Assembly: GCA_023145965.1 (NCBI GenBank)
Contig: JAGLDC010000035.1
Location: forward strand, 14,462 to 78,461
Origin: a bacterium
GTDB taxonomy: Bacteria; UBP14; UBA6098
DNA: 64,000 nt
Reading direction: 5' to 3'
The notes beneath the pieces were generated by a model. It made no database searches. It was not told the DNA's origin and saw nothing but the letters and a program-made list of their open reading frames with translations. Numbering within the stretch: the first letter of the stretch is position 1; every line of letters starts with the position of its first letter. Both the position numbers and the translations under genes were made by a program. Shown here one piece after another: positions 13,910 through 62,732 of the stretch.

Positions 13910-16900
13910 GTGGAACGTTTCATTGATAAAAACCTTTTTAGAAGCGCAATTGCGCTTCTTTTTTTCCTGATAGGTTCAGTTTGCGCACTCGACTCTTATT
14001 ATTTGTCATTCGATCCTATCGACTTAGCCACGCTCAGAAAATATGAAAATCTATCTTTCGAAGAGAGAAAACATATAACAGTAGGTATTCTTCGAGCATA
14101 CTCGGAAAAAGCCCAAGCAGAAGCTCTCATTCTGTTAGATGAATTAACACGCAATGGTGAAATCTCCGATGTCCGTCCCCTTTGGATATGCAACTGCATT
14201 CGTTTTTCGGCTACAACATCAGCAATCGATCAAATCGAATCATCACAACTGGATGCTCGTCTTGTTAAGAGTATTCCAAAAGAAGCAATGCTGTTTAATC
14301 CCGCAAAAACCTCAGAATATGAGGCTTCGGTGGATAGCATAGCATGGGGATTGGAGCAAGTTGGGGTGCCAACCATATGGCGCAGTTTTGGGCTGGACGG
14401 AAAAGGCACACTCGTAGCAATTCTCGACAGTGGAACTGACTTCGGCAACCCAAACCTTATAGGCTCTTTTTGGGAAAACACCAGCGAGATACCTTTAAAC
14501 AACATCGATGACGATAGTAACGGTTACATAGATGACTGGCGCGGTTACGATTGGACAGAAGACGATCCATGGCCTTACGATGAGCGCGGCCATGGCACCC
14601 ATGTTTCAGGGATTGTTGCGGGACGAGGTATTATGGGCATGGCCACAGGAATGGCTCCGGCATGCAAGATAATGCCTCTTAAAGTGCTAAACTATTCCGG
14701 AACTGGAGAGGAAGCAGATGTTTGGGAGGCTATCCAATACGCTATTGAGAATGGTGCTCGAGTTATGAATCTCTCTATCGGTTGGCGCTACAGCAGCTCA
14801 CCAGACAGGTCGGCCTGGCGTGCTGCTGTCGAATCCGCATGTGAAATCGGCGTGGTAATGTGCATTGCAGGGGGCAATGAAGGCGGAACTGATGGCGCTC
14901 CGAATAACCTTCGCACACCCGGAGATGTCCCTCGAGCTCTCACTGTTGGGGCCACGGACATACTCGATGAACGCGCGAGTTTTAGTTCCCTCGGACCGGT
15001 TGCGTGGGGAGAAGTTGCTCCGTATTTCGATCATCCATACCCTCCGGGTCTCATTAAACCGGATATTGTAGCGCCGGGGGATTCGGTTCCAAGCTCAACT
15101 TTAGGCGGCGGTGTCGAATATTGGGATGGCACCAGCATGGCCTGTCCTCATCTAGCTGGCGCATCTGCTATTATTCTCCAGCTATGCCCCGACATCTCGC
15201 ACGATTCTGTTAAAGCACTTATTGAAACCTCGGCGTTTGACCTCGGTCCAACCGGCAAGGATAGTATTTACGGTTCTGGAAGACTCGACCTTATTAACCT
15301 ATTTAACCGGCTTGATAATATCGGCTGGCTGCGCGGCAATACCGAACCTTTGGCGCAGATATGCTCGACCCCTTCCCAAGCCAAAATCCAAGCCGATAGT
15401 CTTGGCCATTTCTTCATTGCGATGAAAGAGGGAACTTATACAATCACAGCCGATAAATTTGGATTTTCATCTACGACATCCCTCGTGAGTGTAGTCGCTG
15501 GAGACACTTCCTTCATCAATTTACCAATTTCCCCCGGAATTCCTAACAACCTTCAATTTGTAGTCAGGGATTTCGACAATGGTGCTCCAATAGGCGATGC
15601 CATCTTGACTTTCCCGCTGTGGCCATTAGATAGTTTTTACACCCTTTCCGACGGCAGAATTGCAATAAGCATCTCAGAATCGGACACTACAACCGTGCAA
15701 ATAAACAAATCTGGTTGGACAACCTATGAATTCACAGCTAACGAAATCTACCCAGATACTATGCTTCACACAATTTATTTACAACGCGCCCTTGACTTTG
15801 AATTGGATTCCGGTCTAACACATTGGGGCATAAGTGATTCCATATATAGCGACGATTGGGAGTGGGGAACACCTTCGACAGGGCCATCTCCTCGAAGCGG
15901 CGATAGACTTTGGGCTACACGATTGGACACCACCTATTCAAATTCAAGCGACAGTTGGCTTAGTCTTGGACAAGTTGATCTTTCTTCGGATGCGGAAGCT
16001 CCTCGCCTTGAATTTTTCCAATGGTTCGAGCTGGAGGCCAGCTCGCGTGCTTGCTGGGATGGAGGAAACATCAAGGCTCGAATTCCTGACAGTGAATGGA
16101 ATATTATCGAACCTCAGGGTGGGTATCCTATCTTCATCGATGACTATAATCCCATCACAGGTGGACAACCCGGATTTTCAGGTGAGTTCAGTGGCGCACA
16201 TTGGCACAGGGTTGTTTTTTCGCTCGATGCCTTCATTGGTGACACAGTCGAACTAGCAGCACACATGGGTTCCGATAACAATACAGTTTATTCTGGATGG
16301 TTTATCGACGATGTAGCGATTCTTCCAAAAACACTTCGAGAACCCATATTTCGAAGTGTTTCCACTGAATTTACAGCAGGTGAGGTTGTAATTTCAGGGA
16401 CATTATTCGCTGTAAACTCGGAAATTGTCGAGGACTCTCTCCTGGCACATTTTGGGGGCGCAGCCTCTGGAACAGCATCCATGATTTCGATTGGTGAGTA
16501 TTTCGAATGCTCAATAGAAGGTCCTTTTTCGAGTGAAAGCCTATTTATATGGCTTTCGGTAGTCGATAGCGAAGCCCGAAAAGCTATTTATCCACATAGC
16601 GCCCCAGATTCGATGATAACGGTCTTGATCGATTTTTCTGAAGATACAACCTCACCTATTATCGAACGATGGGCATACTGGCCTAATCGAATAATTGGAT
16701 TGGATTCCACCGTTTTCGTATTTATAATCGAGGACAGCTCGCCGACAACCTCAATATTTACCTTCGAGCAAGACTCCATAATCGACAGTATAATTATCCC
16801 CGGCTCTTTTTATGACACATTATTGATTACCATTCCGCTTACTTCGTCGAGTGCCCTCGAATGGCATATTACCTCCAGAGATAGCTTTGGTAATATCGCA

Positions 16901-17650
16901 TCAGATTCTTCGACTGTTACTTTTGCGACTGAAGTCTCTTTAGATTTTCATACAACATCCTCGCCCTTCGAAATATCCGACAGCACAAATTGGCGGTGGC
17001 TCCCCGATAGTGGATGGCTTTTTTCAAGCGAAGGCCCAATTCTAGAATTTCTCGATCTTCCACTTCTCGAGTGCCCTGGAACCTTAGCCATCGAGATAAT
17101 TGGTGAATACCATTTTGATGGCAACAGCGCGGGTGCGCTTATCTTCAAGGGTTTTCCGGGCGATAGTTTTGCATCTTTACCAGATACCATTCCTTCCGGA
17201 AATCCTTTCTTTCCTGGACTGCCCGGTGTTATCGGCACAGGGAATATTGTATCGACTATACTTCCATCAGTTTCTGGTGGAATCTTCACTTTTCAACTTG
17301 CCGCTGCCATTCCTGATAGCGATTTCGCATATTGGCTTATAGACTCCATCTGTTTCTTAACCGAATCGAAGATTACGCAAGCTTTAACACCAAAGGATTT
17401 ATCGATTTCTGTTTTTCCAAATCCCTTTAACGATGCATGTAAAATATGTATCGATAACCTCGATAAACCATCGGTGATAGATATTTTCGACATCTGCGGA
17501 AGACGTGTTTATTCACGAAATCTTACCTCCGAAACCTCATCTTTCGTCTGGGATGGCTGTTCTACAACTCGAAAGTGCCTGCCCTCCGGAGTTTATTTGA
17601 TTAAGTTGGCCGACTCGATTGAGATTGCTAAGATCACTTTACTTCATTAA
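13910..17650 (+). CDS. Large secreted subtilisin-like S8 serine peptidase (1246 aa) with a type-A T9SS sorting domain
   Basis: GTG start. Catalytic triad motifs AILDSGTD, HGTHVSGIVAG and GTSMACPHLAG. The C-terminal sorting domain (FPNPFNDACKICI...GVYLIKLA...ITLLH). Confidence 0.8.
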   Translation: MERFIDKNLFRSAIALLFFLIGSVCALDSYYLSFDPIDLATLRKYENLSFEERKHITVGILRAYSEKAQAEALILLDELTRNGEISDVRPLWICNCIRFSATTSAIDQIESSQLDARLVKSIPKEAMLFNPAKTSEYEASVDSIAWGLEQVGVPTIWRSFGLDGKGTLVAILDSGTDFGNPNLIGSFWENTSEIPLNNIDDDSNGYIDDWRGYDWTEDDPWPYDERGHGTHVSGIVAGRGIMGMATGMAPACKIMPLKVLNYSGTGEEADVWEAIQYAIENGARVMNLSIGWRYSSSPDRSAWRAAVESACEIGVVMCIAGGNEGGTDGAPNNLRTPGDVPRALTVGATDILDERASFSSLGPVAWGEVAPYFDHPYPPGLIKPDIVAPGDSVPSSTLGGGVEYWDGTSMACPHLAGASAIILQLCPDISHDSVKALIETSAFDLGPTGKDSIYGSGRLDLINLFNRLDNIGWLRGNTEPLAQICSTPSQAKIQADSLGHFFIAMKEGTYTITADKFGFSSTTSLVSVVAGDTSFINLPISPGIPNNLQFVVRDFDNGAPIGDAILTFPLWPLDSFYTLSDGRIAISISESDTTTVQINKSGWTTYEFTANEIYPDTMLHTIYLQRALDFELDSGLTHWGISDSIYSDDWEWGTPSTGPSPRSGDRLWATRLDTTYSNSSDSWLSLGQVDLSSDAEAPRLEFFQWFELEASSRACWDGGNIKARIPDSEWNIIEPQGGYPIFIDDYNPITGGQPGFSGEFSGAHWHRVVFSLDAFIGDTVELAAHMGSDNNTVYSGWFIDDVAILPKTLREPIFRSVSTEFTAGEVVISGTLFAVNSEIVEDSLLAHFGGAASGTASMISIGEYFECSIEGPFSSESLFIWLSVVDSEARKAIYPHSAPDSMITVLIDFSEDTTSPIIERWAYWPNRIIGLDSTVFVFIIEDSSPTTSIFTFEQDSIIDSIIIPGSFYDTLLITIPLTSSSALEWHITSRDSFGNIASDSSTVTFATEVSLDFHTTSSPFEISDSTNWRWLPDSGWLFSSEGPILEFLDLPLLECPGTLAIEIIGEYHFDGNSAGALIFKGFPGDSFASLPDTIPSGNPFFPGLPGVIGTGNIVSTILPSVSGGIFTFQLAAAIPDSDFAYWLIDSICFLTESKITQALTPKDLSISVFPNPFNDACKICIDNLDKPSVIDIFDICGRRVYSRNLTSETSSFVWDGCSTTRKCLPSGVYLIKLADSIEIAKITLLH

Positions 17651-17835
17651 TAAAATCTTTCTATTAGAATGACTTTTCTTACTTAGCAGGGAGATCGCCA
17701 ATTTTGCTTTTTCATACCGGGCCTTTCATTCCATAATTTCACAAATCCGAAAAGCTTCACTTAATCTTTTCTACAGTTTCCTTAATTTCCTTAAATAACG
17801 ACCTACCTATAAAAATGGGATAGGAAGCGAGGTGC

Positions 17836-17862
17836 TTCAGCGCACAATTTTTGTGCGCTGAA
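17836..17862. promoter_or_regulatory. Perfect 12-bp-arm palindrome TTCAGCGCACAA-TTT-TTGTGCGCTGAA (operator-like), with a third TGTGCGC half-site at 17871-17877
   Basis: The inverted repeat was read directly. There is no U-run on either strand, so it is unlikely to be an intrinsic terminator. It lies about 120 bp upstream of the FN3-lipoprotein operon. Confidence 0.35.
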
Positions 17863-17983
17863 ATAAAATATGTGCGCCAATATATATTATAAAATACCAT
17901 ACTATATTGATTAGCAATACCTTACAGTTTGGCACGGCCAATGCGTTAATTCTTTGTGTAACAGAAATAAAACGGAGGTAAAT

Positions 17984-18862
17984 ATGGATTCTACACTAAA
18001 GATATTCGGCTTTTTAATCTGGATGACATCATTGATGTTGTTTTCTGGAGGTTGCGATACTTATATAGTGAATAATGATCCCTACTATCGCGACTGCGAC
18101 GGTTGTTGGTGCGATAATACACCTCCCCAAATTCCTTATAGTGTCCATTCTATCACTGGAGATAATAGCGTATATCTCTACTGGAATCCAATAACTAGCT
18201 GGGATATGGCGGGTTATGCTATTTATCGCGGTTCTTCACCAACCGGTTATTACGATTATATTGGAACGAGCTATTGCGCGAGCTTCACGGATATCTCGGT
18301 GCTAAACGGAGAAACATATTATTATGCTATAGCCAGCTATGATAACTGTGGAAACGAGAGCGAGCTTTCCACCGATTTGATTTATGATACACCTCGCCCG
18401 GAAGGTCATTCCTGGTATTTGTGGGCATCGGAAAGTTATTATTATGACGGTGGATACGATTTTTCGGAAGGCAACATCATTGAATGGGACCATCCGACTT
18501 GCGATGTCTTTTTTGGCCACGATTCCCTGGGCTATTACCTTTGTGCCGCGAACGATTATACTGATATTTTAGACTATGGCCCCGCTTCTAGTCTTTCTGA
18601 TGTCGATATAGCGCCGGAAACCGGATGGAGCTCAATCGCAGACCTAACCGCAGTCGAAGGGCATATTTATGTGCTTTGGACCGCAGATAACCACTTTGCA
18701 GCACTTCTAATTCGAGACATTTCTGGTGAATGCATGACCTTCGATTGGTCATATCAAATTGATACCGGTAATCCCGAACTACGACCATCGAGAAGCGTAG
18801 TCGAAAGAAGAAAAAACCGTCAAATCAAAAGAGGTCTTCGTTTAACCTTGGAAGGAGAATAA
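17984..18862 (+). CDS. Lipoprotein with a fibronectin type III-like domain
   Basis: Start at ATG 17984 with GGAGG 5 nt upstream. Lipobox LFSGGC. FN3-like segment (VYLYWNPI...YAIYRGSSPTGYYDYIGTS...ETYYYAIASYDNCGNES). Confidence 0.5.
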   Translation: MDSTLKIFGFLIWMTSLMLFSGGCDTYIVNNDPYYRDCDGCWCDNTPPQIPYSVHSITGDNSVYLYWNPITSWDMAGYAIYRGSSPTGYYDYIGTSYCASFTDISVLNGETYYYAIASYDNCGNESELSTDLIYDTPRPEGHSWYLWASESYYYDGGYDFSEGNIIEWDHPTCDVFFGHDSLGYYLCAANDYTDILDYGPASSLSDVDIAPETGWSSIADLTAVEGHIYVLWTADNHFAALLIRDISGECMTFDWSYQIDTGNPELRPSRSVVERRKNRQIKRGLRLTLEGE

Positions 18863-18863
18863 A

Positions 18864-19838
18864 ATGAAAAAACTACTTTTAATCGTCATTGCTTCGACAG
18901 CTCTTTTAATGATGCTTCCAGAAACTGCCTCCGCCAGATGGCACTTTGGATTCGGCGCTTATTATGAAGATTGCGATTGCTACTGGGGAGAACCCGATCC
19001 GTGGGATGCTTGGTGGGAATGCCCCTGCTATTGGGATATTTGGGAATGGTGCAGCTGGCATCCCTATTGGATGTGGCCGCGTTGGTGCCGTCGCTGGGTG
19101 GAGGCTTATTATAGCCCTTGTGGTAGATATTACTATGTCTATTACGATTACTTTGTTCCGCGCAGCACCAGGATATATGTCGATGGGCGCTACCGCTATC
19201 GCTACGATGTGCCACTTGGATCATCTTATAATACTACAGAGAGAATACCCCGCAGAAGCGGCCTCGAACGCCCAAGTGGATCACCTCCAAGACCCGAAAC
19301 AGTCACCAGAACTCTGGAGAACCTCGGCCCAGAATATAGGATAAAAACTGTCGCATCTCACGCAACACAACCTACACAAAGCTTGAGAAATTCCGGTTCC
19401 AGTGTAACACCTATTTCGCCTTCGCGCGAAAGACCTATTACTACAGAATCGATTCTCCCAAAAAGCACAACCGCGCCGTATATCGAGGAAAGCCCTAAAA
19501 AAGCTGTTACACTTAAGACCGTTCCGACTTCGATTTCGAGTTCGGTTAGGAACCTTTCAGATGGTTCGTTAACAATAACAAATTCCAAGATTGATAAACC
19601 TCGCGAAAAAGATATTTCAACCGAGGATGTTATTGATATACCGGTGAAGACAACCGTTAAATCGGACAATACAGACAAAAAGTCCTATCGCGCTAAAAAA
19701 GACGTGATTGAAAAATCATCAAAACAAAAAAACATTAAGGGTATATCTTCGACATCTGAGAGTTCATCGAGTTCCAGCCCCAGAGCTGAGAAAAGTTCTC
19801 CTTCGAGAAGCTCTTCTAAATCGATTAGAACCAAGTGA
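18864..19838 (+). CDS. Secreted protein with an extremely Trp/Cys/Tyr-rich N-terminal domain and a long Ser/Thr/Pro/Lys-rich disordered tail
   Basis: Signal peptide. The 70-residue region GFGAYYEDCDCYWGEPDPWDAWWECPCYWDIWEWCSWHPYWMWPRWCRRW has about 14 Trp and 8 Cys. RBS GGAGAA. 1-bp spacing from the upstream gene. Confidence 0.5.
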   Translation: MKKLLLIVIASTALLMMLPETASARWHFGFGAYYEDCDCYWGEPDPWDAWWECPCYWDIWEWCSWHPYWMWPRWCRRWVEAYYSPCGRYYYVYYDYFVPRSTRIYVDGRYRYRYDVPLGSSYNTTERIPRRSGLERPSGSPPRPETVTRTLENLGPEYRIKTVASHATQPTQSLRNSGSSVTPISPSRERPITTESILPKSTTAPYIEESPKKAVTLKTVPTSISSSVRNLSDGSLTITNSKIDKPREKDISTEDVIDIPVKTTVKSDNTDKKSYRAKKDVIEKSSKQKNIKGISSTSESSSSSSPRAEKSSPSRSSSKSIRTK

Positions 19839-19871
19839 TTCTTGACAACTCATAGTTCGTCGAATATATTT

Positions 19872-20351
19872 ATGAAAATGAAAAAAATATGTGAAATATT
19901 AATTCTGACTTTAGTCGCTGTGGCTGCCTTCGCCCAGAAACCAGATTCATCGGACTCTATTAGTAAAAAGGCTGCGGTAGTTCGAGATCAGTCAACAGGC
20001 GCAATAACTGTCGGTGAACCAGAAACAAGCCTCAGAAGTGCTCCTTCTTCTGCCAAAAACTCCACCAAGGATTCAGATTTCGATCTCGGTGGATTTCTTA
20101 AGGAACTTTTCGAGGCAGGGGAATCGACGCCAAAAAAAAGCCAACGGAGCTATGATTGTTCGAGCGACGAGGCCGAAACAAGAACCGCTCCAGCGCCTTC
20201 GGCAAAATCTCGAATATCCTCCGAGAGTTCCTCTGCCATTCCTACATCGAAGGGCAAAAGCTACGATACTTTCGAGGACAATAACAATAATGGAATCGAT
20301 GATCGTCTCGAGGGTGTAAAAACAATCAAAGCGAGTCGGAGTAAGAATTAA
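19872..20351 (+). CDS. Small secreted low-complexity (Ser/Asp/Lys-rich) protein
   Basis: Signal peptide MKMKKICEILILTLVAVAAFAQ. The start is chosen at the internal ATG. No recognisable domain. Last gene before the terminator. Confidence 0.4.
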   Translation: MKMKKICEILILTLVAVAAFAQKPDSSDSISKKAAVVRDQSTGAITVGEPETSLRSAPSSAKNSTKDSDFDLGGFLKELFEAGESTPKKSQRSYDCSSDEAETRTAPAPSAKSRISSESSSAIPTSKGKSYDTFEDNNNNGIDDRLEGVKTIKASRSKN

Positions 20352-20368
20352 TCTGGTTAGGCAAAATA

Positions 20369-20398
20369 AACCCCGCTCAATTAGGCGGGGTCTTTTTC
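20369..20398 (+). terminator. Rho-independent terminator (CCCCGC-loop-GCGGGG followed by TCTTTTTCT)
   Basis: Stem 20371-20376 / 20385-20390, followed by a T-run. Confidence 0.7.
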
Positions 20399-20402
20399 TA
20401 TT

Positions 20403-21131
20403 ATGAAATTCGTTTCAACTAGTTTTTTTATCCCTTCAAATTGCATCTCCCGTGGGCAAGTTAAATTTCCTAAGGATGAAAGCACCCATGTCTATAAAGT
20501 CATGCGTGCTTCTGTTGGGGATACAGTGCGCGCTGTCGATGGCAAGGGACATATATATTGGGTAAAAATCACTCGTGTTGATATTATGCACAGCAGAGGC
20601 GAGATAATCGAAACGACAACTACGGAGTTAGAACCACACACCCTCTTCTCGTTAGCTATGGGAACCATTTTACCAAAACGCATGGAAGCAGCTTGGGATT
20701 CATGCGTTCAGTTGGGAATTTCAACCCTAATTCCGGTAAGAACAAAATTCTCTCTTTCGCGTATAAGAGAGGATGGAAAATTCATCGATAGGTTAAATGC
20801 AGTTGGAAAAAGAGCTATGCTTCAAAGCGGTAGAGCTGTTCATCCGACCGTAGAAATGCCCTGCGAGTTGAGCGAAATTGTTATACACGATTTTAACACC
20901 ATACTTTTTGGCGACGAGGAAGGTTTGCCTACGCCACCATCAGAAAAACCAAAACTCGGGGAAAAAGTGCTCTTATTAGTTGGACCCGAAGGGGGGTTTT
21001 CAGCGGAGGAAAAGAGGATTATCGAACAAGCCGGTGGCGTCGGAATATCACTTGGGCCGAGAAAGTTAAGAGCGGAAACAGCTGCAGTAACGCTTTCTGT
21101 TTTGGCCTTAAGGTGGTCGAGGGACATATAA
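20403..21131 (+). CDS. rsmE: 16S rRNA (uracil1498-N3)-methyltransferase RsmE
   Basis: Length 242 aa. PUA-like N-terminus and the LLVGPEGGFSAEE motif. Confidence 0.75.
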   Translation: MKFVSTSFFIPSNCISRGQVKFPKDESTHVYKVMRASVGDTVRAVDGKGHIYWVKITRVDIMHSRGEIIETTTTELEPHTLFSLAMGTILPKRMEAAWDSCVQLGISTLIPVRTKFSLSRIREDGKFIDRLNAVGKRAMLQSGRAVHPTVEMPCELSEIVIHDFNTILFGDEEGLPTPPSEKPKLGEKVLLLVGPEGGFSAEEKRIIEQAGGVGISLGPRKLRAETAAVTLSVLALRWSRDI

Positions 21132-21223: not shown

Positions 21224-22636
21224 TTGATGAGATTTTTTGTTCTGATACTTTGCCTTTTTTTATTCGTTATCTCCGCTTTTTCAGCAGGGATGAACCTACC
21301 ATGTGTCGGGGCAAAAGCACTTTCTATGGGTGGCGCTTTCCGCGCTATCGCCGACGATGGTTCTGCAGTGTTTTGGAATCCAGCTGGATTGTCTGCTAAT
21401 GATGCTTCACAAGTAAATCTGCTCGGGCAATTACTTCTGACTTTTTCAACATATGTCGCCGACGACACGCTTATCGCAATAAATCAGCTTTTTCGCGAGG
21501 GAACAAACGAAAAAATCGATAAAACCTTTTTCCTTGGGAACGGCTATTTTACTTATGCCCCAAAGAAACTCGAGAGATGGCGCTTCGGCTTAGGTATATA
21601 TTCCCCTGCCGGAGTCGGAAGCACTTGGGATGTGCTTAAAGAGAACGGCAGCGGTGGAGTAGGAAAGATTAATCCAAGCGAGATGAACTCGATGTTCCCT
21701 GATTCCGATTACATTATGAGCACCACTGAATCCTTACCCTATAAGGATTTTCGAGGAACATTGGGGTGTTATTCGATCAACCCTGGAACGAGCTACAATT
21801 TAACTAATAAGGTTTCTCTGGGTATATCCGCAATTTGGACCTTCGCAGTTCTAGATATTGGGATACCATCATCAGATTACGATAAAATGCAAACAGATAC
21901 CGGCGTAGTTTTTCAGGAAGGTGAATTTTCCGGAGAAAGCTACGGCTTTAATTTGGGTGTGCTTTATAAACCGAACAAAAGACTATCGTTTGGAGGAAAT
22001 CTCAAGTATCAGACAGATTTTTCATTCGAAGGCGATTTAACCGAGACTGTATATAAATTCTACAACGAGGATCTTCACAATCTTGGCTTGTTTATAGGGG
22101 ACACGATCCTTTCTGGTGGAAAGCTTATCAAACCCCCAGTGCGCGCGTATGCGGAACTCTCGCGTCCATTTGAATTGGGCGTGGGATCAGCTTATAAATT
22201 GGGAGAAAAATTAACAATTTCTCTCGATTTGTCATATACTTACTGGTCTTCTGTCGATTCGATAATCCTAAAATCCCGCGAAGGCGAACAACTGGTAACC
22301 ATGGCGATGCATTGGGTTGATACATATAGAATTTCTGTTGGTGGAGAATATCAATTTTCGGCGCTTTCAGCGCGATTGGGTGCTTTCTATGAACCCAATC
22401 CTTCCGTTTTGGATTTTCAGAATCTTTTCATACCAGAGATGAATGACAGAGTTGCCTTCACTGGAGGACTTGGACTACATCTCAAAGATTTTCTTTTGGA
22501 ATTTTCTGCGGAGACAGAATTCTTTGGAGAGATAATCGCAAGCCCAAATTTTGAGGGAGATTTTCCGGTCAACATCCCGGGAACATACACAGGTAAAGTT
22601 GGGGATTTAATCTTATCGGCAACATATATTTTTTAG
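21224..22636 (+). CDS. Outer-membrane beta-barrel transporter of the FadL/OmpP1/TodX family
   Basis: Signal peptide. N-terminal motif GAKALSMGGAFRAIADDGSAVFWNPAGL. C-terminal aromatic residue (…ATYIF). Confidence 0.6.
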   Translation: MMRFFVLILCLFLFVISAFSAGMNLPCVGAKALSMGGAFRAIADDGSAVFWNPAGLSANDASQVNLLGQLLLTFSTYVADDTLIAINQLFREGTNEKIDKTFFLGNGYFTYAPKKLERWRFGLGIYSPAGVGSTWDVLKENGSGGVGKINPSEMNSMFPDSDYIMSTTESLPYKDFRGTLGCYSINPGTSYNLTNKVSLGISAIWTFAVLDIGIPSSDYDKMQTDTGVVFQEGEFSGESYGFNLGVLYKPNKRLSFGGNLKYQTDFSFEGDLTETVYKFYNEDLHNLGLFIGDTILSGGKLIKPPVRAYAELSRPFELGVGSAYKLGEKLTISLDLSYTYWSSVDSIILKSREGEQLVTMAMHWVDTYRISVGGEYQFSALSARLGAFYEPNPSVLDFQNLFIPEMNDRVAFTGGLGLHLKDFLLEFSAETEFFGEIIASPNFEGDFPVNIPGTYTGKVGDLILSATYIF

Positions 22637-22645: not shown

Positions 22646-24199
22646 ATGTTTGTTGACACACACGCACATATAGATTTCGAGGATTTCACCGATGAGCTTG
22701 ATAACGTTATCTCGAGGGCATGGGATGTCGGCGTTAGGACAATAGTGATTCCGTCGATAGAGGCGAAAACAATGCAAAAAGCGGCCTCGATAGCTGAAAG
22801 TTTCCCCCACATATGGTTTGCCGCTGGATGGCATCCAAGTGATGCGGATTCCTTCGATGAAAGCTTGTTTAAGCATTATCTCGGCCATCCAAAATGCATT
22901 GCCATTGGAGAAATAGGCCTTGATTTTTACCGAGAACACACTGAGAAATCGCTACAAATAGAGGTTTTTAGAAAACAACTTGGGATAGCAGCGGATAGAT
23001 CGCTTCCTGTTATAATCCATATTCGTGAGGCTTGGGACGAGGCTCGAAAGATAATTGATGAATTCCCGGAAGTTGTTTGCGATTTTCATGCCTTTTCGGG
23101 CGGGGCCGAGGAGGTTGAGTGGATAGTGCAAAGAAGCGGATATATGGGGCTTGGAGGGCCATTAACCTTCAAGAATTTTAAAAGAAGCGAGACAATCGAA
23201 ACCATCCCTATGGGAAATATCCTCCTTGAAACGGATTGCCCTTTTCTCGCACCACACCCCCATAGAGGAAATCGAAATGAACCGTCATTCATTCCTTTAA
23301 TCGCCGATAAGGTGGCTGAATTCAAATCAGTCGAATTGGACAAGGTCGAAATGGTAACAACTGCAAATCTTAAGCGGTTTTTAGGTATTCCGATGCCGAT
23401 TTCCATTAGCAACAAGAATATTGCAAAAAGATCACTATCTCAGAATTTTTTATGCGATGATAATATTATCAAGAAATTTGTTAGCATCATCAATAAAACA
23501 GATTTAATCATCGAAATTGGAGCTGGCAATGGCGAGATTACTTCATATTTACCCGAGAAATCTCTCAATATCTGGGTAACAGAACCTGATTGGGGGCGCA
23601 TCCCGGCATTAAAAAAGGCTGCGCCGGAAACGATCATTCTTCCAATGAAAGTCCAGAACATCGACCTAAAAGGGCTTTGCTCTTTCGAGGGCAAAAAAGC
23701 GACAATAGTCGGCAACCTTCCATATGCTGATAGTTCTCAAATAATTTTTCAAATTATCGAGCATCGTGATATTATCGATAGGGCTATCATTATGATACAA
23801 AAGGAGTTTGCCGAAAGACTGTGTGCCTGTCCGGGTTCTAAAAAATATGGCATCCCGAGTGTGCTTCTGTCATTATTTTTTGATGTTAATTATCAATTCG
23901 ATGTCTCGCCGCATTGTTTTAAACCTGTGCCAAGGGTTGATTCCTCCGTTATATCAATGGTGCCAAGAAAAGAAACACCTGCCCAAAAAGTTGAATACCA
24001 TTTATTGAAAGACATCATTAAATCTGCATTCTCGCACAGGCGAAAAACCATAGCTAATTCGATGAAATGGGCTTTCGGGCAATATGATCTAATTCCAATC
24101 TTGAAGACCGTAGGAATAAATCCCTCGGACAGAGCGGAAAATATATCGCCAGAGAGTTTCGTAAACTTAGCGATAGCCCTCGGAAAGACAGTGCTCTGA
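22646..24199 (+). CDS. In-frame fusion of TatD-family metal-dependent DNase/hydrolase (N-terminal half) with 16S rRNA (adenine1518/1519-N6)-dimethyltransferase RsmA/KsgA (C-terminal half)
   Basis: N-terminus MFVDTHAHIDF...GEIGLDFY...ETDCPFLAP is TatD. From about residue 255 the sequence MPISISNKNIAKRSLSQNFL...IEIGAGNGEIT...VGNLPY is KsgA. There is no stop between them. The stop overlaps the pgsB start (TGATG). Confidence 0.65.
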   Translation: MFVDTHAHIDFEDFTDELDNVISRAWDVGVRTIVIPSIEAKTMQKAASIAESFPHIWFAAGWHPSDADSFDESLFKHYLGHPKCIAIGEIGLDFYREHTEKSLQIEVFRKQLGIAADRSLPVIIHIREAWDEARKIIDEFPEVVCDFHAFSGGAEEVEWIVQRSGYMGLGGPLTFKNFKRSETIETIPMGNILLETDCPFLAPHPHRGNRNEPSFIPLIADKVAEFKSVELDKVEMVTTANLKRFLGIPMPISISNKNIAKRSLSQNFLCDDNIIKKFVSIINKTDLIIEIGAGNGEITSYLPEKSLNIWVTEPDWGRIPALKKAAPETIILPMKVQNIDLKGLCSFEGKKATIVGNLPYADSSQIIFQIIEHRDIIDRAIIMIQKEFAERLCACPGSKKYGIPSVLLSLFFDVNYQFDVSPHCFKPVPRVDSSVISMVPRKETPAQKVEYHLLKDIIKSAFSHRRKTIANSMKWAFGQYDLIPILKTVGINPSDRAENISPESFVNLAIALGKTVL

Positions 24200-25407
24200 T
24201 GGAATTATTCCTCATTCTGCTTATAATTGCGCTAATCGTCTGGTGGGTTTTGGAATATCGCCGGCATTCTATGAATGTAGATAGAATAAAAATTCGAATC
24301 CATGTCAACGGCACTAGAGGAAAATCCTCTGTAACTAGGCTTATCGCTGGCGCGCTTCGCGAGGGTGGAATTCACACGGTTGCAAAAACTACCGGCACAA
24401 TTCCGAGGCTTATTCTTCCAGATGGCACCGAGGAACCCATAGTGCGTCTCGGCTCGCCAAATATTCACGAACAGGTTGCAATCGTTCGCCGGGCTGTCGA
24501 TCTCGATGCAGAGGCACTTGTTATTGAATGTATGGCGCTACTTCCAGAGTATCAAGAAATATCTGAGCGCAAAATCATTAAAAGCACCATCGATGTCATA
24601 ACCAACGCACGCCCCGATCATCTAGATGTGATGGGACCAACCGGACATGATGTAATCGATGCGCTTTGCGGCACAATCTCGAAGGGGAACATCTGTTTTA
24701 CTTCTGAAAAGGAGCATTTTGACCATATAGAGAAAAATGCCATCGATAACGGAGCGACAATTGTGCAAGCAGTTCCCTCCACTATTGAAAAAACCGATAT
24801 GGCTGGATTTTCATACATCGAACACGAGGAAAATGTTGCATTAGCGCTTAAAGTGGCTGAACATTTGGGGATTTCTCGCGAAACTGCCATTCGAGGAATG
24901 CAAAAAGCGACCCCTGATATCGGCGCATTGACCGTTTATAAAGTTGAATTCTTCGGGAAAGTAGCAATATTCTATAATGCTTTTGCCGCCAACGATCCCG
25001 AATCTACCGGTGCGCTCTGGGTCAAGCTTAAACTCGATACAGACCCAACCTTCCCAACAATTGTGCTAGCGAATAACCGTGCAGACCGTGCAAGCCGAAC
25101 TTCACAGCTTGCAGAAATGTTAGTGGATAAAGTCCATGCTAATTATTATATATTAACAGGAACGAATACTAAGCTTCTCGTCGAGAAGCTCGATCGGCAT
25201 GGTATGAATATGACCGCAGTTTACGATATGGGTGGAGTGGAGGTCGAAGATATATTCGAGCTTTGCATGGAATTGACGCCCACACACAGTTCCATAGTGG
25301 GTGTAGGGAATATTGGTGGTATAGGCAGGGAAATTTTGGCCTATTTCGAGGCAAGAGCTTTGCCTCGTAAAACACACCACCATGACGACAGCGCAAATGG
25401 GGTATAA
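24199..25407 (+). CDS. pgsB: Poly-gamma-glutamate synthase, amide ligase subunit PgsB/CapB
   Basis: N-terminal TM followed by IRIHVNGTRGKSSVTRLIAGAL (Mur-ligase-like P-loop), matching the B. subtilis PgsB N-terminus. Further collinear motifs ECMA, DHLDVMGPT and GVGNIGG. Confidence 0.85.
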   Translation: MELFLILLIIALIVWWVLEYRRHSMNVDRIKIRIHVNGTRGKSSVTRLIAGALREGGIHTVAKTTGTIPRLILPDGTEEPIVRLGSPNIHEQVAIVRRAVDLDAEALVIECMALLPEYQEISERKIIKSTIDVITNARPDHLDVMGPTGHDVIDALCGTISKGNICFTSEKEHFDHIEKNAIDNGATIVQAVPSTIEKTDMAGFSYIEHEENVALALKVAEHLGISRETAIRGMQKATPDIGALTVYKVEFFGKVAIFYNAFAANDPESTGALWVKLKLDTDPTFPTIVLANNRADRASRTSQLAEMLVDKVHANYYILTGTNTKLLVEKLDRHGMNMTAVYDMGGVEVEDIFELCMELTPTHSSIVGVGNIGGIGREILAYFEARALPRKTHHHDDSANGV

Positions 25408-25458
25408 AGAATAAGTTCGTAAGTATAATGCTGTTTTAACCAATTTTCGGAGTTTATT

Positions 25459-25926
25459 ATGCTCTGGTTGTCTGTAGGTCTTGGATTGGTATTATCGCTC
25501 GGCTTCGCCGAATGGTTTGGACTTGCCGCTGGTGGGCTTGTAGTCCCGGGCTATATCGCTCTTTTCTGGAGCGAACCACTTAAAGTGGTGGGAACGGTAA
25601 TTATTGCCATAGCCGCGTTCGGTTCGATAAAAGTAATAAGCCAATACACACTTATTTATGGAAGACGCAAACTGGTTCTAACTGTGCTTATTGCATTTGT
25701 TTATGCTTGGCTTTTCAGGGTTCTTTTACAAGGCGAATACGGATTGTTTCTTAATTCTTTCGACCCCATCGGTTTTATAATTCCCGGCCTTTTAGCCTAC
25801 TGGATGGATAAGCAGGGAGTTATCGATACACTCAGCACTATGGTAATTGCCAGTATTGTCGTCCGGCTAATGCTTATTATTTTTAGAGGAGGTGAGCTTC
25901 TTGAAGTGGCACTCCCGACGAGTTAA
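25459..25926 (+). CDS. pgsC: Poly-gamma-glutamate synthase membrane subunit PgsC/CapC
   Basis: 155-aa polytopic membrane protein. AGGLVVPGYIAL...YGRRK...IIPGLLA is collinear with B. subtilis PgsC. Confidence 0.8.
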   Translation: MLWLSVGLGLVLSLGFAEWFGLAAGGLVVPGYIALFWSEPLKVVGTVIIAIAAFGSIKVISQYTLIYGRRKLVLTVLIAFVYAWLFRVLLQGEYGLFLNSFDPIGFIIPGLLAYWMDKQGVIDTLSTMVIASIVVRLMLIIFRGGELLEVALPTS

Positions 25927-27001
25927 TCTAGGCGCTTTAGTTTTCCTTGCACTCATAGGTATAGCAATCATGGCTATTGTCGAGCTTTCCAAGGTACGTG
26001 TGAAGAAACCATATTTTGAAGAGAAAGTCGAAGCCTCTAATCTCACTCAAATAGCTTTTTTAACGATCAACAATACCGGCGGTGATTGTGTGGTAATTGA
26101 CTCGGTGGTCGATAGGAACGGAACCGGCCTTATCGGTGAGCAGTTCACATTAATTACCACCGATAGAGGAAATTTAACATCTAAATTAACCACAACAAAT
26201 CCCAACTGGGGCGCGGTAGTTGTCGATATGTTACGCGAAGTTGGTGTTGACGCCGGAGATTACGTCGCCGTGGCATACACTGGCTCGATGCCCGCATTAA
26301 ATATCGCTGTCATCACTGCGGTGCAAACTATCGGTGCGATTCCAGTTATTGTTTCCAGTGTTGGAGCCTCTATGTGGGGCGCGAACAACCCAAATTTCGC
26401 ATGGCTCGATATGGAAAATACTCTTTTTGATAAAGGGGTATTCAAGTATAAAAGCATAGCCGCATCTTTGGGTGGAAGAGGCGACATTGGCGGTAATGTC
26501 TCTCCTGAAGGAAGAAGAATTCTCCGCGAAATAATCGAGCGAAACTCGATTCCCTTCATAAACGCGGCGACGCTGGACGAGTCGATAGATAAACGGGTGC
26601 AAATCTATGAAGAGGCCTTGCCTCAAGAAAAAAGATATTCGGCTTATGTAAATGTCGGTGGTGGTTTAGGCTCTATCGGGAGTGGCCAAAACCTCGTTGC
26701 GCTGCGCTCTGGGATCAATATGCGTGTCCCGGTGGGCAATTACTCTCGAAAAGGCGCGATGATTAAATTCGGAGAAAAGGGAATACCGATGATAGTCCTT
26801 TCGGATATTAACAATATAGCCGCTCGATACGGCCTGCCGATTGCACCAGAACCTTTACCGGATATTCCTCATGGAGATGTTTATTCCGAACTAAAATATA
26901 GATTATGGCTTGTGATAGTTGGCTTAGTATTTTATTTGTCATTGGTTTTTGTTATTGTTAGAGTGGATCTGAAAGGTATAATTTTCAGAAGGAAGAGATA
27001 A
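25892..27001 (+). CDS. Membrane-anchored PGA-system protein (PgsAA-like, non-CapA third component as in Fusobacterium-type PGA loci)
   Basis: N-terminal TM. No metallophosphatase (CapA) motifs. Immediately follows pgsB-pgsC. Assignment to the 'poly-gamma-glutamate system protein' family rests on context and recalled family features. The start may be an internal GTG/ATG. Confidence 0.45.
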   Translation: MSFLKWHSRRVNLGALVFLALIGIAIMAIVELSKVRVKKPYFEEKVEASNLTQIAFLTINNTGGDCVVIDSVVDRNGTGLIGEQFTLITTDRGNLTSKLTTTNPNWGAVVVDMLREVGVDAGDYVAVAYTGSMPALNIAVITAVQTIGAIPVIVSSVGASMWGANNPNFAWLDMENTLFDKGVFKYKSIAASLGGRGDIGGNVSPEGRRILREIIERNSIPFINAATLDESIDKRVQIYEEALPQEKRYSAYVNVGGGLGSIGSGQNLVALRSGINMRVPVGNYSRKGAMIKFGEKGIPMIVLSDINNIAARYGLPIAPEPLPDIPHGDVYSELKYRLWLVIVGLVFYLSLVFVIVRVDLKGIIFRRKR

Positions 27002-34088: not shown

Positions 34089-37000
34089 ATGAGACGGAAT
34101 TTGTTTATTGGATTGTCTCTATTGTTGTGTATTATTGGGGTGTCGGTTGCCAATTCTCGGTCGCCGCTTTCGGCTGGGAATATGAATTTTGTTTGTCAAG
34201 GAAGAACATATGCTGGTCAAAACACTTTTGAGACCGGCGCTTATGCTTCCGAAGACTTTAATTTCTTCATCAGTTGTCATTTCGATACTGGTGGTGTCGA
34301 TGTTGGTTTTGTTATCGACTCTTCCGGTTCGATGTCTGGAACACTCACTGCGGTCAAAGCGACCATAGGCTCATTTGCTACGGGTTTAGACACTGCGGGT
34401 TATGATGCGCGTTATGGTGGATGTCCTTATGCTGACAGCACTCGTGGCATGTGGGATTTCAATGCGAGCACTCCACATCCTGATTATGAGATGACGAATA
34501 ACATATCCACTTTTCAGACTAGACTTGCGACCTGTGGTGCTTCTGGCGGTGGCGATACACCGGAAGAATACCTCGATGCTCTTGCTGCAGTGATGCGTCA
34601 CTACGACTGGCGGCTTCTTTCGATGAAGATTATCATAGGTTTCACCGATGCTGTTTTCTGCGAGCTTGGCAATTCTTGTTTTGACTGCCGCTCCAATGAG
34701 AACAAGGACGACATTCTCGATGAGCTTATCGATGGTGGTTTCATTTTATTTAACATCACAAAGATACCGCCATACTGGAGTTCTTGTGTTCCAGCCTCTC
34801 CGTATCACTCTGATTGGTATCAACTATCGGCTGACACAACAGGTGGACAATGGTATAATCTTACTACTACACCGTGGACTACTATTTTCTCTGATGTTAT
34901 CACCTTCATTCGCGACTATCAGAGTATCGGTGTTGCGGTTATCAACTCGGGAACAGACACTATTTATGATGTTACAGGCGAGCTTATTGCGAGCGACTGC
35001 TTCGAGGTTATCACCGCTCCGGCGGTCAACCCTGCTATCGCTCCTGGTGACACTGTGATTTTCAATTGGAGACTCGAGCCATTCGATCCTGTTACCTGTC
35101 CGATGGACAGTTCTGAAGAGTTCTGCTTCCTTACTGTTTTTCATGCTACCGATGGCGTCGCTCCAATATCTGACTTTGTTACCGGAGGATGTGTTTTCTT
35201 CGGAGCGGATTGCGGGTGCGATGGAACCAATGCAGAGAAGGAATTCCCTCCCAACCTAGCAATTACTTCCTGTCCTGACCAGCTCGTCCGCTATTCGATG
35301 TCCACGAAGTGCTATCTTGACACTACTTCGTTTATATTTAAAGTTAACTCCGGTTCTGGATGGATAATGATTCCCTGGAACGGCGATGGCATGACCATGC
35401 TTTCAGATACTGGTTTTGTGTGGGCACCAGCCGAGTCACTTTTGTTCTTCGAGCACGGCGACACCACCCTACACGAGCTTTATCAACTAAACGATGTTTC
35501 TGGCCTTGGGCTCCATAGCAGACCTTCCGGCAATTTCGTTGTCGATCTGTTGCCTCCGGTCTATGACACTCCTTATCCTGTCGATGGTGCTCTCATCGGC
35601 GGACCTCCAGCCTATGTTAGGATCAATGTCACCGATGATCTTTCCGGTGTGGATCCGGGCGAAGGCTGGTGGTTATCTGTCAATGATACAGAGGTTCCCA
35701 CAACTGACTCACACCTCACCTTCGATGGCATGATGATCAGCCTCGAGGTTGCGGGTTCGATTACATCGATGTTCCCTCCGGGTGATACCATCGAGATTTG
35801 CGTTGGTGCTCAGGATTCACCGGATCTTTGCGATCCGAATGTTAGCTCAATCTGTTGGAGCTTCATTATCGATTATCTAGACTTCGATTTACCAGAAATG
35901 ATCGTTGAACCGAACGATACATTCTTGGTGCCAATAATCGCTTACAATCCCAATAGATTTGTTCTCCACGATTTCTCGGTTTCCTTTGAGTATAATCCCG
36001 ATATACTTATTTTCACCGGCACAGATAGAACTGGCAGCGCCTTACCGACCTCCTGGATTACCAGCGTGGACACCGCCGCCGGTGTGGCAACAGTTTGGGG
36101 TAGCGGCACTGGAGCGCTAGCCGATGTTGACACACTTATATTCCTTTCTGCCATTGTTAAACCTGAGGCTCCAAGCGCTTCATTCACACCGCTTATTTAC
36201 ACAGAAGATGGCATTGTCCTCGACAGCGGATATATCGGTTACAGGATTATTGATAACGGTTGGGTGCTCGTTGGTTGGTCACCAGAAACTTGGGTTCATG
36301 ATCTAACCTTCGATTCTGATACAAGGCCATTGAATACTATTCTCACTTTTGGTATGCAAAACGCAGCTAGTGCAAGCTATGATCTTGGTATCGATATTCC
36401 TTTCTACCCACCACCTGCCAATAGAACAAATTCTTATTTCCCGATTTCGGACTCTGTTTATCCTCTGGTTACCAAACTCGAGCGAGACCTCAGAGCTCCT
36501 GCGCCACTTCCTGTAGAATGGAAGATAGCAACTGTTGGTGAAGCTGGCATCCTCACTTGGTCAACCGCCGGCCTCCCAGAAGGAGAACTCACGCTTAATG
36601 GCATGATCGAGATGCACCTTCACGATACCTATCATTATGCAGCCAACGAGACTATCACTATTGTCTATGACCGTCCCGAACCGATTATCAACGAGATCAG
36701 CATTGATGTTGGATGGAATCTTGTAGGCTTCCCGTGCATCCCCACTGTCGATGTTGTCCCGAATATTATCCCGGGCGGTTTGTATCATCTTTACGGATAT
36801 AACCCCTTTGACCTTGCCTATTTCTCAACCAATAGAGCCGAAGCCGGTCATGGTTATTGGGTTTATTCCATGGAAGAGGGCACATATAACATGGGCGGAA
36901 TTCCGGTTGCCAGCTATGAAGTTCCTTTGAACACCGGTTGGAACCTGGTTGGTTGCGCAAATGTCTCCAGTGCCACATACACAAGCACGCCAGCCATTTC

Positions 37001-41515: not shown

Positions 41516-41674
41516 CCGGGGGGCGTCGGAATTTCTAGTTTAGCGGAAAACCAGTTTTCCGCTAAACTAGAAATCGGCATCCGGCCGGAGCAAAATTCTT
41601 ATTTTTTTCGAAATAGTATCGACCGGCCGGACGCCCACGTTGCGCTTTTTGGCGCAACGCCCGACGCCCCCCTG
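41516..41674. repeat. 159-bp GC-rich nested-palindrome element (MITE-like or structured RNA) bounded by a 14-bp imperfect inverted repeat CCGGGGGGCGTCGG / CCGACGCCCCCC
   Basis: Internal perfect 21-bp-arm hairpin at 41531-41551 / 41554-41574. Two self-complementary TCCGGCCGGA boxes. A CGTTGCGC-TTTTT-GCGCAACG hairpin at 41638-41659. Local GC is far above the surrounding level. Confidence 0.5.
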
Positions 41675-62530: not shown

Positions 62531-62732
62531 AAATAACAGCTTTTTTTATATTTGGGATTGCCTCTTATATATATTCTTTTACATATTGCTGAAATAATAA
62601 ACTGCAATTAAATATACTGTTTTGGTTAGGGCTGGCATTTGAATCGCTTGTGTAAAAGATGTTTAGCGATTGACACACGATGTCGATAATCATATAATTT
62701 ATCGAATTTTAAATCGATATGTGGAGGCAAAT

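Follow-up and report, generated by a model that had tools for sequence, protein, structure and literature searches.

A putative sigma-54-controlled operon for envelope-targeted proteins in UBP14-like bacteria, with related loci in other phyla

The g1-g2-g3 locus and its products

The DNA analysed here, a 64,000-nucleotide stretch of contig JAGLDC010000035.1 (assembly GCA_023145965.1) that is referred to below as the window, comes from a bacterium whose closest named relative is 'bacterium UBP14_UBA6098'. It carries three co-directional open reading frames (ORFs), here named g1, g2, and g3, which the initial annotation had described as a secreted operon encoding a fibronectin type III (FN3) lipoprotein, a Trp/Cys/Tyr-rich protein, and a disordered protein, behind an operator-like palindrome. 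The three genes lie where that annotation had placed them, with the exception of the start of g3, which is discussed below:

17984-18862, + strand: g1, predicted FN3 lipoprotein of 292 aa (ORF, signal peptide, lipobox Cys24, homologs, AlphaFold2 (AF2) model)
18864-19838, + strand: g2, predicted Sec-exported Trp/Cys/Tyr-rich protein of 324 aa (ORF, conservation, codon-position test)
18864-18935, + strand: signal peptide of g2, residues 1-24, ending in ASA (sequence)
18936-19358, + strand: Trp/Cys/Tyr/Arg-rich conserved domain of g2, residues 25-165 (family alignment)
19359-19835, + strand: variable, basic, Ser/Thr/Pro/Lys-rich disordered tail of g2, residues 166-324 (composition, alignment)
19878-20351, + strand: g3, small, predicted Sec-exported and mostly disordered protein of 157 aa (start at a conserved ATG)

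On balance, we favour the explanation that these are real, envelope-targeted genes and that the cluster is the form taken, in the UBP14-like lineage, by an undescribed operon with a wide distribution among FCB-type phyla, a measured preference that applies to this explanation as a whole. The gene order g1-g2-g3-rsmE is constant across all UBP14-like loci, while the upstream gene differs in identity and strand, and a sister clade retains the three-gene layout. A single base pair separates the g1 stop from the g2 start, and an AAGGAG sequence precedes g2. An Rfam scan of positions 17400-20600 gave nothing over noise, the window holds no tRNA genes, and a search of the literature on DUF4384, UBP14, and Trp/Cys-rich secreted bacterial proteins found nothing describing this operon.

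With a lipoprotein signal on g1 and signal peptides on g2 and g3, all three products are predicted to be routed through Sec. The type IX secretion system (T9SS) C-terminal sorting domain (Por_Secre_tail/CHU_C) is absent from g1, g2, and g3 in Pfam and NCBIfam scans (matches at an E-value of 0.1 or better were accepted), and transport past the outer membrane is therefore not indicated. The description of the proteins as secreted consequently holds for their Sec and lipoprotein signals and does not extend to a T9SS route. T9SS sorting domains do occur on six large proteins of the window (7747-10326, 13910-17650, 34089-37745, 46233-52106, 56495-58462, and 58623-60275), a cargo that includes M1, S8, and S15 peptidases and one protein of 1957 aa, from which it follows that the organism possesses a type IX secretion system.

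The g1 product is a predicted bacterial lipoprotein with an FN3 domain, in line with its first description. Its N-terminus consists of a signal peptide and the lipobox LFSGG-C24, of which Cys24 is invariant in 79 homologs, and lipoboxes are present in g1 homologs across loci. Behind Cys24, a Cys-rich linker is followed by FN3 (approximately residues 50-125), a conserved β-sandwich of ~130 aa, and a basic C-terminal tail. The AF2 model, based on the 79 homologs, reaches a pLDDT of 88 and comprises an N-terminal helix (the signal peptide), FN3, and the second β-sandwich at residues 133-257. Foldseek aligned its FN3 part with PDB entry 3mpc (TM-score 0.80, rmsd 1.8 Å), and the g1 profile matches FN3 chains of the PDB with an E-value of 4.7e-9; the Pfam family PF00041 gave no match to g1 at the above threshold. 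It is the second domain that carries the motifs best conserved in the family (DTPRPEG, GYDFS, WTxDNHFA, and FDWAYQxxxGNPEL), and no solved relative of this domain was found by sequence. The g1 family comprises at least 463 homolog clusters, with named sources among the Zixibacteria, Gemmatimonadota, KSB1, Ignavibacteria, WOR-3, and Hydrothermia, and all of these homologs are annotated as hypothetical or 'FN3 domain-containing'.

The mature N-terminal part of g2 is of extreme composition. Trp occurs 13 times and Cys 6 times in residues 25-80 (7 Cys when counted through residue 86), slightly fewer than the ~14 Trp and 8 Cys first reported for a composition that is otherwise real, and there are 19 Tyr and 17 Arg in residues 25-165. 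Over residues 25-90, Trp accounts for 19.7% and Cys for 10.6% of the sequence, compared to 1.7% and 1.3%, respectively, in the other ORFs of the window. The Ser/Thr/Pro/Lys-rich tail, likewise reported initially, extends over residues 166-324 (37 Ser, 18 Thr, 12 Pro, and 20 Lys; net charge +12, pI 10), and tails across the g2 family carry net charges of +3 to +22.

Relatives of g2 are few. Among 5.8 billion proteins searched, the NCBI entry KAH81_03695 ('bacterium', annotated as a hypothetical protein) is identical to g2, and 14 further clusters match it at 40-66% identity; the resulting 15 close clusters and ~10 distant ones all derive from UBP14-like metagenome-assembled genomes (MAGs) and the sister clade. 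When 1.84 billion representatives were searched exhaustively with a profile, 12 proteins were recovered, all of this same family and six of them from the sister clade, and a wider profile run over the 5.8 billion proteins added just 4 sister-clade proteins. In the family alignment, the N-terminal domain is nearly invariant, the tail variable, and the C-terminus basic and conserved. Invariant positions of the UBP14-type proteins include C37, C39, C53, and C63, eleven Trp, and the motif Y-R-Y-R-Y at 110-114; three of the four invariant Cys hold across both clades, and C55, C75, and C86 are replaceable. The sister-clade proteins are shorter (209-230 aa) and richer in Cys, with the runs DCDCWDCDCWDCCCC and CCCCC where the UBP14-type proteins have their conserved Cys and with an additional CxGC, and the core common to both clades reads CRRxVxxYYSPCGxYxYVYYDY…RVYV…RxxYR…RRxGL. 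At the very C-terminus (19809-19835), the UBP14-like clade conserves S-x-R-x-[KR]-COOH with an invariant R322; basic C-terminal residues are also found in the sister clade and in the positional equivalents of g2 in WOR-3, and g3 ends similarly. This basic C-terminus of g2 could serve as a recognition or sorting signal.

The absence of a known domain family, asserted when the locus was first described, was upheld: g2 matches no Pfam or NCBIfam family at an E-value of 0.1 or better, and its best match among PDB sequences, at E 0.82, is not significant. A match to a characterised domain, which would have refuted that first description, was thus not obtained. The structure prediction that had been proposed for the domain was uninformative, as the AF2 model of residues 25-170 (15-sequence alignment) reached a pLDDT of 48.9 and no fold could be assigned. 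On the Wimley-White interfacial scale, the Trp-rich residues 50-79 score -12.5 kcal/mol, which compares with -11.8 to -13.6 kcal/mol for true transmembrane segments encoded in the window. The putative effector proteins of the operon, the g2 domain included, fit no described family.

That the Trp/Cys/Tyr ORF is an artefact of frame or composition is vanishingly improbable. Two further frames also contain long ORFs across the Trp-rich stretch (18946-19344 on the + strand, 132 aa, and 18886-19224 on the - strand, 112 aa), and similar ones occur in the orthologs; however, the annotated frame displays invariant W, C, Y, and R columns and a conserved signal peptide, and across eight orthologous loci the nucleotide differences in the domain fall on codon positions 1, 2, and 3 in numbers of 447, 350, and 1042. 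The excess at position 3 implies that the annotated g2 frame is under purifying selection. The alternative ORFs owe their existence to the TGG, TGC, and TAT codons, which give no stops when shifted, and might mislead gene callers. Similarly rejected was a role for g2 as the precursor of a ribosomally synthesised and post-translationally modified peptide (RiPP) or of a cross-linked cofactor, of the cysteine tryptophylquinone (CTQ)/QhpC-like or triceptide-like kind, since neither a radical-SAM enzyme nor any further maturase is linked. The S8 protease encoded upstream matches QhpE weakly, a reflection of generic subtilase similarity, and is not kept beside the operon.

The cysteines invite another explanation, to which we assign a rather low probability: g2 may bind metal in the periplasm and be controlled by a sigma-54 two-component pathway in the manner of ZraP-ZraSR. 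Its CxC...CxC...C cysteines would then form a thiolate site or cluster by which a metal such as Zn, Cu, or Fe is buffered or sensed, with induction by metal stress. The four invariant Cys, three of them shared by both clades, are in keeping with such a site, as are the odd number of Cys (7) in the mature window domain and the Cys runs of the sister clade, adjacent Cys being commoner in metal-thiolate sites than in disulfide knots. The replaceable C55, C75, and C86 argue against it, and so does the finding that g2 has no similarity to ZraP, metallothioneins, or metal-binding families in Pfam, NCBIfam, or the PDB; nor is any metal transporter or resistance gene linked to the cluster.

The third protein, g3, combines an amphipathic segment (FDLGGFLKELF), one DxDxDG-type loop (D-T-F-E-D-N-N-N-N-G-I-D-D-R), and a basic C-terminus. 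Across 17 sequences from several phyla, invariance is confined to D-x-F-x-D-x-[ND]-x-[ND]-G-[IV]-x-D, and the sequence conforms to the DxDxDG calcium-loop motif with its downstream acidic ligand, which makes this a putative calcium loop. It resembles the loops of thrombospondin type-3 and EF-hand-like proteins, with D-x-F preceding the invariant part, and differs from these families in that it stands singly, the rest of the protein being disordered; Pfam gave neither a TSP_3 nor an EF-hand match in g3. Relatives of g3 are recognisable by sequence in 20 loci.

Transcription signals of the cluster

The region upstream of g1, the g2-g3 junction, and the end of the cluster contain the following elements:

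17836-17862, + strand: perfect palindrome, arms 17836-17847 and 17851-17862 (12 nt arms, 100% complementary)
17871-17877, + strand: third TGTGCGC half-site, 19 nt past the right arm (repeat search; TGTGC invariant in a 7-way alignment)
17930-17945, + strand: predicted sigma-54 (RpoN) promoter TGGCACGGCCAATGCG (core TGGCACGGCCAATGC, 17930-17944), -24 GG at 17931-17932 and -12 GC at 17943-17944
17974-17978, + strand: Shine-Dalgarno sequence GGAGG of g1, found in all aligned orthologs
19842-19870, + strand: predicted internal sigma-70-type promoter, TTGACA (19842-19847), 17 nt, TATATT (19865-19870), 11/12 consensus positions
20370-20399, + strand: intrinsic terminator, GC-rich hairpin (20370-20391) and T-run, kept in orthologs

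The pattern TGGCAY-N6-TGCR has one match in the whole window, and this match lies ahead of g1. The predicted transcription start is located at ~17956, leaving a 5' untranslated region of ~28 nt. The promoter motif agrees with the RpoN consensus TGGCACnnTTnTTGC (PMC8743547), and the palindrome with the most conserved positions of the NtrC box, (T)GCA(CC)AnnnT(GG)TGC(A), i.e. GCAnnA-N3-TnnTGC (PMC8743547). The core of the palindrome, GCACAA-TTT-TTGTGC, occupies 17842-17856 and starts 88 nt before the -24 element, inside the range of roughly 70-150 bp at which such enhancers are located, and the centre of the palindrome lies ~107 bp upstream of the predicted start. Both the perfect 12-nt arms and a repeated TGTGCGC had been recognised initially, and both were confirmed, the repeat at 17871.

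Seven aligned ortholog upstream regions display four invariant blocks amid a diverged spacer: GCACAA..TT.TGC, TGTGC, TTTGGCA…TGC, and the ribosome-binding site. The window contains ~5 perfect inverted repeats of at least 12 nt, so that the palindrome by itself is unremarkable; its significance derives from the fixed position that it keeps in the seven UBP14-like upstream regions and in further loci. Furthermore, its distance from the promoter is constant even though the upstream gene changes identity and strand. The palindrome could form a 12-bp hairpin, and a role as terminator of the upstream gene was considered; this is as improbable as an artefactual g2, as neither strand has a T-run after it and its position is tied to the promoter instead. 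The palindrome is most likely an enhancer, or upstream activating sequence, for an NtrC-type sigma-54 activator rather than a repressor operator, and the third half-site probably represents what is conserved of another, degenerate site for the activator approximately two helical turns off. We regard the reading of these elements as a sigma-54 promoter with its enhancer as highly probable. The dedicated regulation that had been suspected for the cluster is borne out.

Two further inverted repeats of the window may be recorded here. The longest, a perfect palindrome with 21-nt arms (ATTTCTAGTTTAGCGGAAAAC / GTTTTCCGCTAAACTAGAAAT) and a 2-nt loop, lies at 41531-41574 between a MatE and a ROK-family gene. 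The other, at 62457-62493, has perfect 15-nt arms (TGTCACGAAATTTGC / GCAAATTTCGTGACA), is located ~180 nt upstream of a MoxR-type AAA+ gene (62670-63734), and may be a regulatory site.

The internal sigma-70-type promoter follows directly after the g2 stop and ends 7 nt before the g3 ATG. Eight orthologs conserve CTTGACA, the 17-nt spacing, TATAWT, and the ATG, while the sequence of the spacer varies. The TTG at 19842 is hence the -35 hexamer of a conserved promoter, and g3 begins at the ATG at 19878. Of the gene spacings of 1-3 bp given initially, that between g1 and g2 (1 bp) therefore stands, and the 3 bp between g2 and g3, which presupposed a start at TTG 19842, does not. The arrangement suggests that g3 also has its own leaderless or nearly leaderless transcript. 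The clean terminator noted at the end of the cluster was found again (20370-20391), and an equivalent hairpin follows g3 in seven of the eight orthologous loci. The ATG of rsmE, encoding a 16S rRNA methyltransferase, lies within ~12 nt of this hairpin (window 20351-20403), as it does in the corresponding gaps of loci L007-L011 and L021, and such a gap leaves no space for an rsmE promoter. One possibility is that transcription from the strong sigma-70 promoter ahead of g3 continues into rsmE.

These signals bear on the proposal made at the outset, namely that the genes form a single, tight secreted operon under a repressor-operator palindrome and that the g2 module acts in extracellular polysaccharide binding, redox chemistry, or adhesion. 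The perfect palindrome with its repeated half-site and the 1-bp gap between g1 and g2 speak in its favour; moreover, carbohydrate-binding domains are typically small, aromatic, and Cys-rich, and adhesive proteins characteristically draw on the chemistry of Tyr together with Lys/Arg. However, the palindrome lies ~107 bp upstream of the sigma-54 start, off the promoter, at a distance that is kept in the orthologs and in WOR-3, which fits an NtrC box better than a repressor operator, and sigma-54 promoters need activators, which are encoded beside the operon in relatives. A single tightly coupled unit is contradicted by the conserved promoter between g2 and g3, and secretion to the exterior is not indicated, given the lack of T9SS domains on the three proteins in a window that encodes at least six T9SS cargo proteins. 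Finally, no carbohydrate-binding module or redox family was matched in Pfam, NCBIfam, or the PDB. We consider this proposal improbable, and the palindrome is treated below as the candidate enhancer of a sigma-54 promoter.

Related loci in other phyla

The same regulatory layout recurs ahead of g1 homologs from other lineages. The 290 nt upstream of g1 were scanned in 80 further metagenome loci, 70 of which provided enough sequence, and the strict motif TGGCA[CT]-N6-TGC was present in 40 of these 70, against a background of 0.0055 per 290 nt (~0.4 expected). One complete genome each of the Gemmatimonadota, WOR-3, and Ignavibacteria has a -24/-12 motif ahead of its g1 homolog. In 42 related loci, the 220 nt upstream of the -24 element were scanned for the enhancer dyad: 11 loci have GCAC-N7-GTGC somewhere in this interval, and 8 of these have it between -76 and -89 relative to the -24 element (background 0.024 per 220 nt). 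A WOR-3 locus carries the identical TGCACAATTTTTGTGCA dyad together with a third half-site, and several WOR-3-type loci possess a pair of complete palindromes, at -76 and -56, a spacing of 20 nt.

Candidate regulators are encoded alongside. A gene for a protein with the GAFTGA motif, the signature of sigma-54 activators, immediately precedes g1 in the same orientation in 11 of the loci that were fetched, and the five such proteins checked against Pfam all comprise Sigma54_activat and HTH_8, with either Response_reg or TPR/GAF. A PAS-HisKA-HATPase kinase was confirmed by Pfam in locus L076. A DUF4783 protein follows g1 in 23 loci, and a HAMP-HisKA kinase of 1100-1500 aa follows it in 15. In a second context of g1, the gene is followed first by the DUF4783 protein and next by the HAMP-HisKA kinase, without any aromatic protein (L027, L031, L048, L054, L062, L065, L070, L072, L079, and others); the two contexts are combined in L018 and L020. 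g1 may act as an accessory lipoprotein of this giant HAMP-HisKA kinase.

A DUF4384 protein, a family of no known function, is encoded just 3' of g1 in 44 loci and is fused to an extreme aromatic segment; in WOR-3-type loci, the aromatic segment precedes DUF4384 rather than being fused to it, e.g. YVWWYPWWWDWYWYRCHW. The aromatic proteins of the other phyla reach up to 60% W/Y/F/C over 60 residues, followed by a long basic polar tail, and a small protein with the g3 motif usually comes next. The DUF4384/PEGA aromatic proteins of WOR-3, Gemmatimonadota, and Ignavibacteria thus resemble g2 in their position after an FN3 lipoprotein, in the sigma-54 promoter, in the aromatic stretch (e.g. WWYPWWWDWYW), in the Tyr/Arg strands and basic tail, and in the g3-type gene that follows. 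They differ from it in that g2 lacks DUF4384, PEGA, and FecR, and its CxC Trp-rich domain is not significantly similar to them. g2 is accordingly best described as a positional and compositional equivalent of these aromatic proteins, possibly a remote homolog, and not as a member of their family.

In the Gemmatimonadota locus L018, a second aromatic protein (8480-9136; 218 aa, 48% W/Y/F/C over 60 residues) is encoded after a FadL-like barrel; it has a net tail charge of +20 and no Pfam match, so that more than one copy per locus is possible. A FadL/PorV-like outer-membrane barrel is also encoded after rsmE in the window (21224-22636), and the same type of barrel directly follows the gene in the g2 position in L018 (7225-8466), L097, L100, L059, and L066. 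This barrel may be a loosely linked fourth component.

The relatives also inform the metal-binding explanation of g2. The linkage of sigma-54 signals, activator, and sensor kinase recalls ZraPSR by analogy, and the source samples include MAGs from Guaymas and from hydrothermal sites; metal stress is plausible in sediments of a hydrothermal or sulfidic kind. Against this, the aromatic counterparts in WOR-3 and the other phyla are Cys-poor, which indicates that the property conserved across the operon family is aromaticity with a basic tail, and not thiols.

This predicted operon is undescribed and is found in at least six bacterial phyla. Its regulatory design is of a known kind; the operon as a whole is not described.

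A candidate inducible envelope module

The best explanation of the locus as a whole, and the one we favour on balance, is that it encodes an inducible, envelope-associated module. An NtrC-type enhancer-binding protein would bind GCACAA-N3-TTGTGC and the neighbouring half-site, and the sigma-54 promoter at 17930-17945 would remain silent until this activator remodels the closed complex with ATP and thereby turns on g1 and g2; in the relatives, the signal would arrive via the adjacent sensor kinase. g3 would be expressed by read-through from the sigma-54 promoter, from its own sigma-70-type promoter, or from both. All three products would leave the cytoplasm via Sec: g1 as a lipid-anchored scaffold of FN3 and β-sandwich, g2 as a compact domain, in which four invariant Cys occur together with a Trp-lined segment and β-strands of alternating Tyr and Arg, extended by a long, disordered, polycationic tail, and g3 as a disordered protein with one calcium-type loop. 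The activator signal would then lead to the deposition of an envelope-associated complex, in which the aromatic domain of g2 would dock on the membrane interface or on g1 and all three proteins would engage an anionic envelope polymer through their basic tails, such that the envelope is remodelled or reinforced.

The interfacial energy of g2, taken together with the three basic tails, suggests this docking at the membrane interface or on g1 along with polyanion binding. The membrane- and polyanion-binding role is nevertheless a tentative proposal, which we think doubtful enough to keep apart from the promoter assignment. What the sequence data show are the genes and how they are conserved, the export signals, the conserved motifs of promoter and enhancer, and the linkage of activators in relatives; activator binding, the localisation of the products, and this role are what we infer from them.

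Several points weigh against the explanation as a whole. No rpoN or activator gene was found in the 64 kb window by a Pfam scan of all ORFs of at least 150 aa, and the cognate activator of this genome must therefore be encoded outside the window. The case for promoter and enhancer function is one of motif and conservation, and 30 of the 70 related loci lack the strict sigma-54 motif in the 290 nt scanned. When g2 was compared to its positional counterparts in WOR-3 and Gemmatimonadota, hhalign returned probabilities of at most 2.7%, which are not significant; the equivalence of g2 is for this reason drawn from gene position and composition, and homology is not claimed. The roles at the membrane interface and with polyanions are read from composition, the g2 model being unusable at its pLDDT of 48.9, and the conserved Cys pattern of g2 could equally mean metal binding.

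The synthesis of one possible polyanionic partner for the basic tails is encoded nearby. A poly-gamma-glutamate cluster is located 4 kb downstream (24199-27001) and comprises PgsB (TIGR04012), which scores 418 bits where the cutoff is 223, as well as PgsC (TIGR04011) and a TIGR04332 'poly-gamma-glutamate system protein'; the same neighbourhood is seen in UBA6098 (L001) and in a Guaymas MAG (L009), and it is unexpected in an uncultured FCB-like lineage. g1-g3 might accordingly anchor or organise poly-gamma-glutamate, their basic tails tying the capsule polymer to the envelope. The completeness of the PgsB/PgsC/TIGR04332 system, its retention in UBA6098 and the Guaymas MAG, and the fact that all three proteins end in basic tails are consistent with this idea. 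Yet the linkage is lost in the UBP14-like loci L003 and L005, and the system was not seen beside the WOR-3, Gemmatimonadota, and Ignavibacteria loci. In the window itself, g1-g3 ends at a terminator, and rsmE, the outer-membrane protein gene, and a TatD-KsgA gene intervene, and charge complementarity is in any case unspecific. A dedicated link to poly-gamma-glutamate seems to us improbable. The intervening TatD-KsgA gene (22646-24199) is an ORF of 517 aa that fuses a TatD-type DNase to an RrnaAD/KsgA domain, a fusion that also occurs in L001 (9777-11327) and L009 (4530-6083).

Known systems offer partial parallels. The locus resembles NtrC-activated sigma-54 promoters of the E. coli glnAp2 type in its -24/-12 element, TGGCAC-N5-(A/T)TGC, in the 17-bp dyad GCAnnA-N3-TnnTGC ~100 bp upstream, in the second site approximately two helical turns off, and, in the relatives, in the adjacent Response_reg-Sigma54_activat-HTH_8 proteins and kinases. 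It differs from them in the dyad itself (GCACAA/TTGTGC, not GCACCA/TGGTGC), in its predicted targets, which concern the envelope and not nitrogen assimilation, and in its occurrence in an uncultured lineage. In ZraP-ZraSR and PspF-pspABCDE, a sigma-54 promoter and an activator drive the expression of small envelope proteins; the likeness to these systems, i.e. a sigma-54 promoter with a dedicated activator, often a kinase, and small envelope proteins, would be one of logic only, as the products here, a lipoprotein, an aromatic protein, and a putative calcium-loop protein, bear no sequence relation to theirs in Pfam and NCBIfam scans. Sigma-54 regulons reportedly centre on functions of the cell exterior.

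For the g2 domain, the cation-pi ladders of Trp-Arg folds (thrombospondin type-1 repeats and WSXWS) and Trp-rich interfacial segments such as the membrane-proximal external region (MPER) of gp41 provide a possible lead: g2 combines WxxW-spaced Trp, an invariant Y-R-Y-R-Y strand, and conserved Cys, which resemble the ingredients of such a ladder, and its Trp-rich stretch is as interfacially hydrophobic as a membrane segment. This analogy is not accompanied by a sequence match in Pfam or the PDB, the ~20% Trp of g2 lies far above that of the ladder folds, and the low-confidence AF2 model offers no structural comparison. We know of no described bacterial precedent for an ultra-aromatic fold with a polycationic tail acting by cation-pi and electrostatic interactions.

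Taken further, and with considerably more reserve than applies to the inducible module itself, the loci could represent an unrecognised envelope-signalling system of WOR-3, Zixibacteria, Gemmatimonadota, KSB1, Ignavibacteria, and UBP14-like bacteria. Such a system would be driven by sigma-54 and two-component regulators, with the cluster as its output and maybe a sensory accessory; its effector would be a new, ultra-aromatic fold stacked from Trp, Tyr, and Arg (in UBP14, Cys- or metal-stabilised) with a polycationic tail, acting by cation-pi and electrostatic interactions at the membrane interface.

If this is correct, a conserved, activator-dependent envelope operon would exist in hundreds of uncultured lineages of at least six phyla, where it has gone without annotation or literature. 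The pair of motifs, a sigma-54 promoter and a GCACA-N5-TGTGC enhancer, would allow the regulon, and the signal behind it, to be traced through metagenomic and metatranscriptomic data. A domain of ~20% Trp that current prediction fails to fold would become a target for structural work on aromatic and cation-pi packing, metal-thiolate sites, or binding at the membrane interface. Finally, a testable function would be assigned to the catalogued but uncharacterised proteins that accompany the operon (DUF4384, PEGA, and DUF4783) and to its giant sensor kinase.

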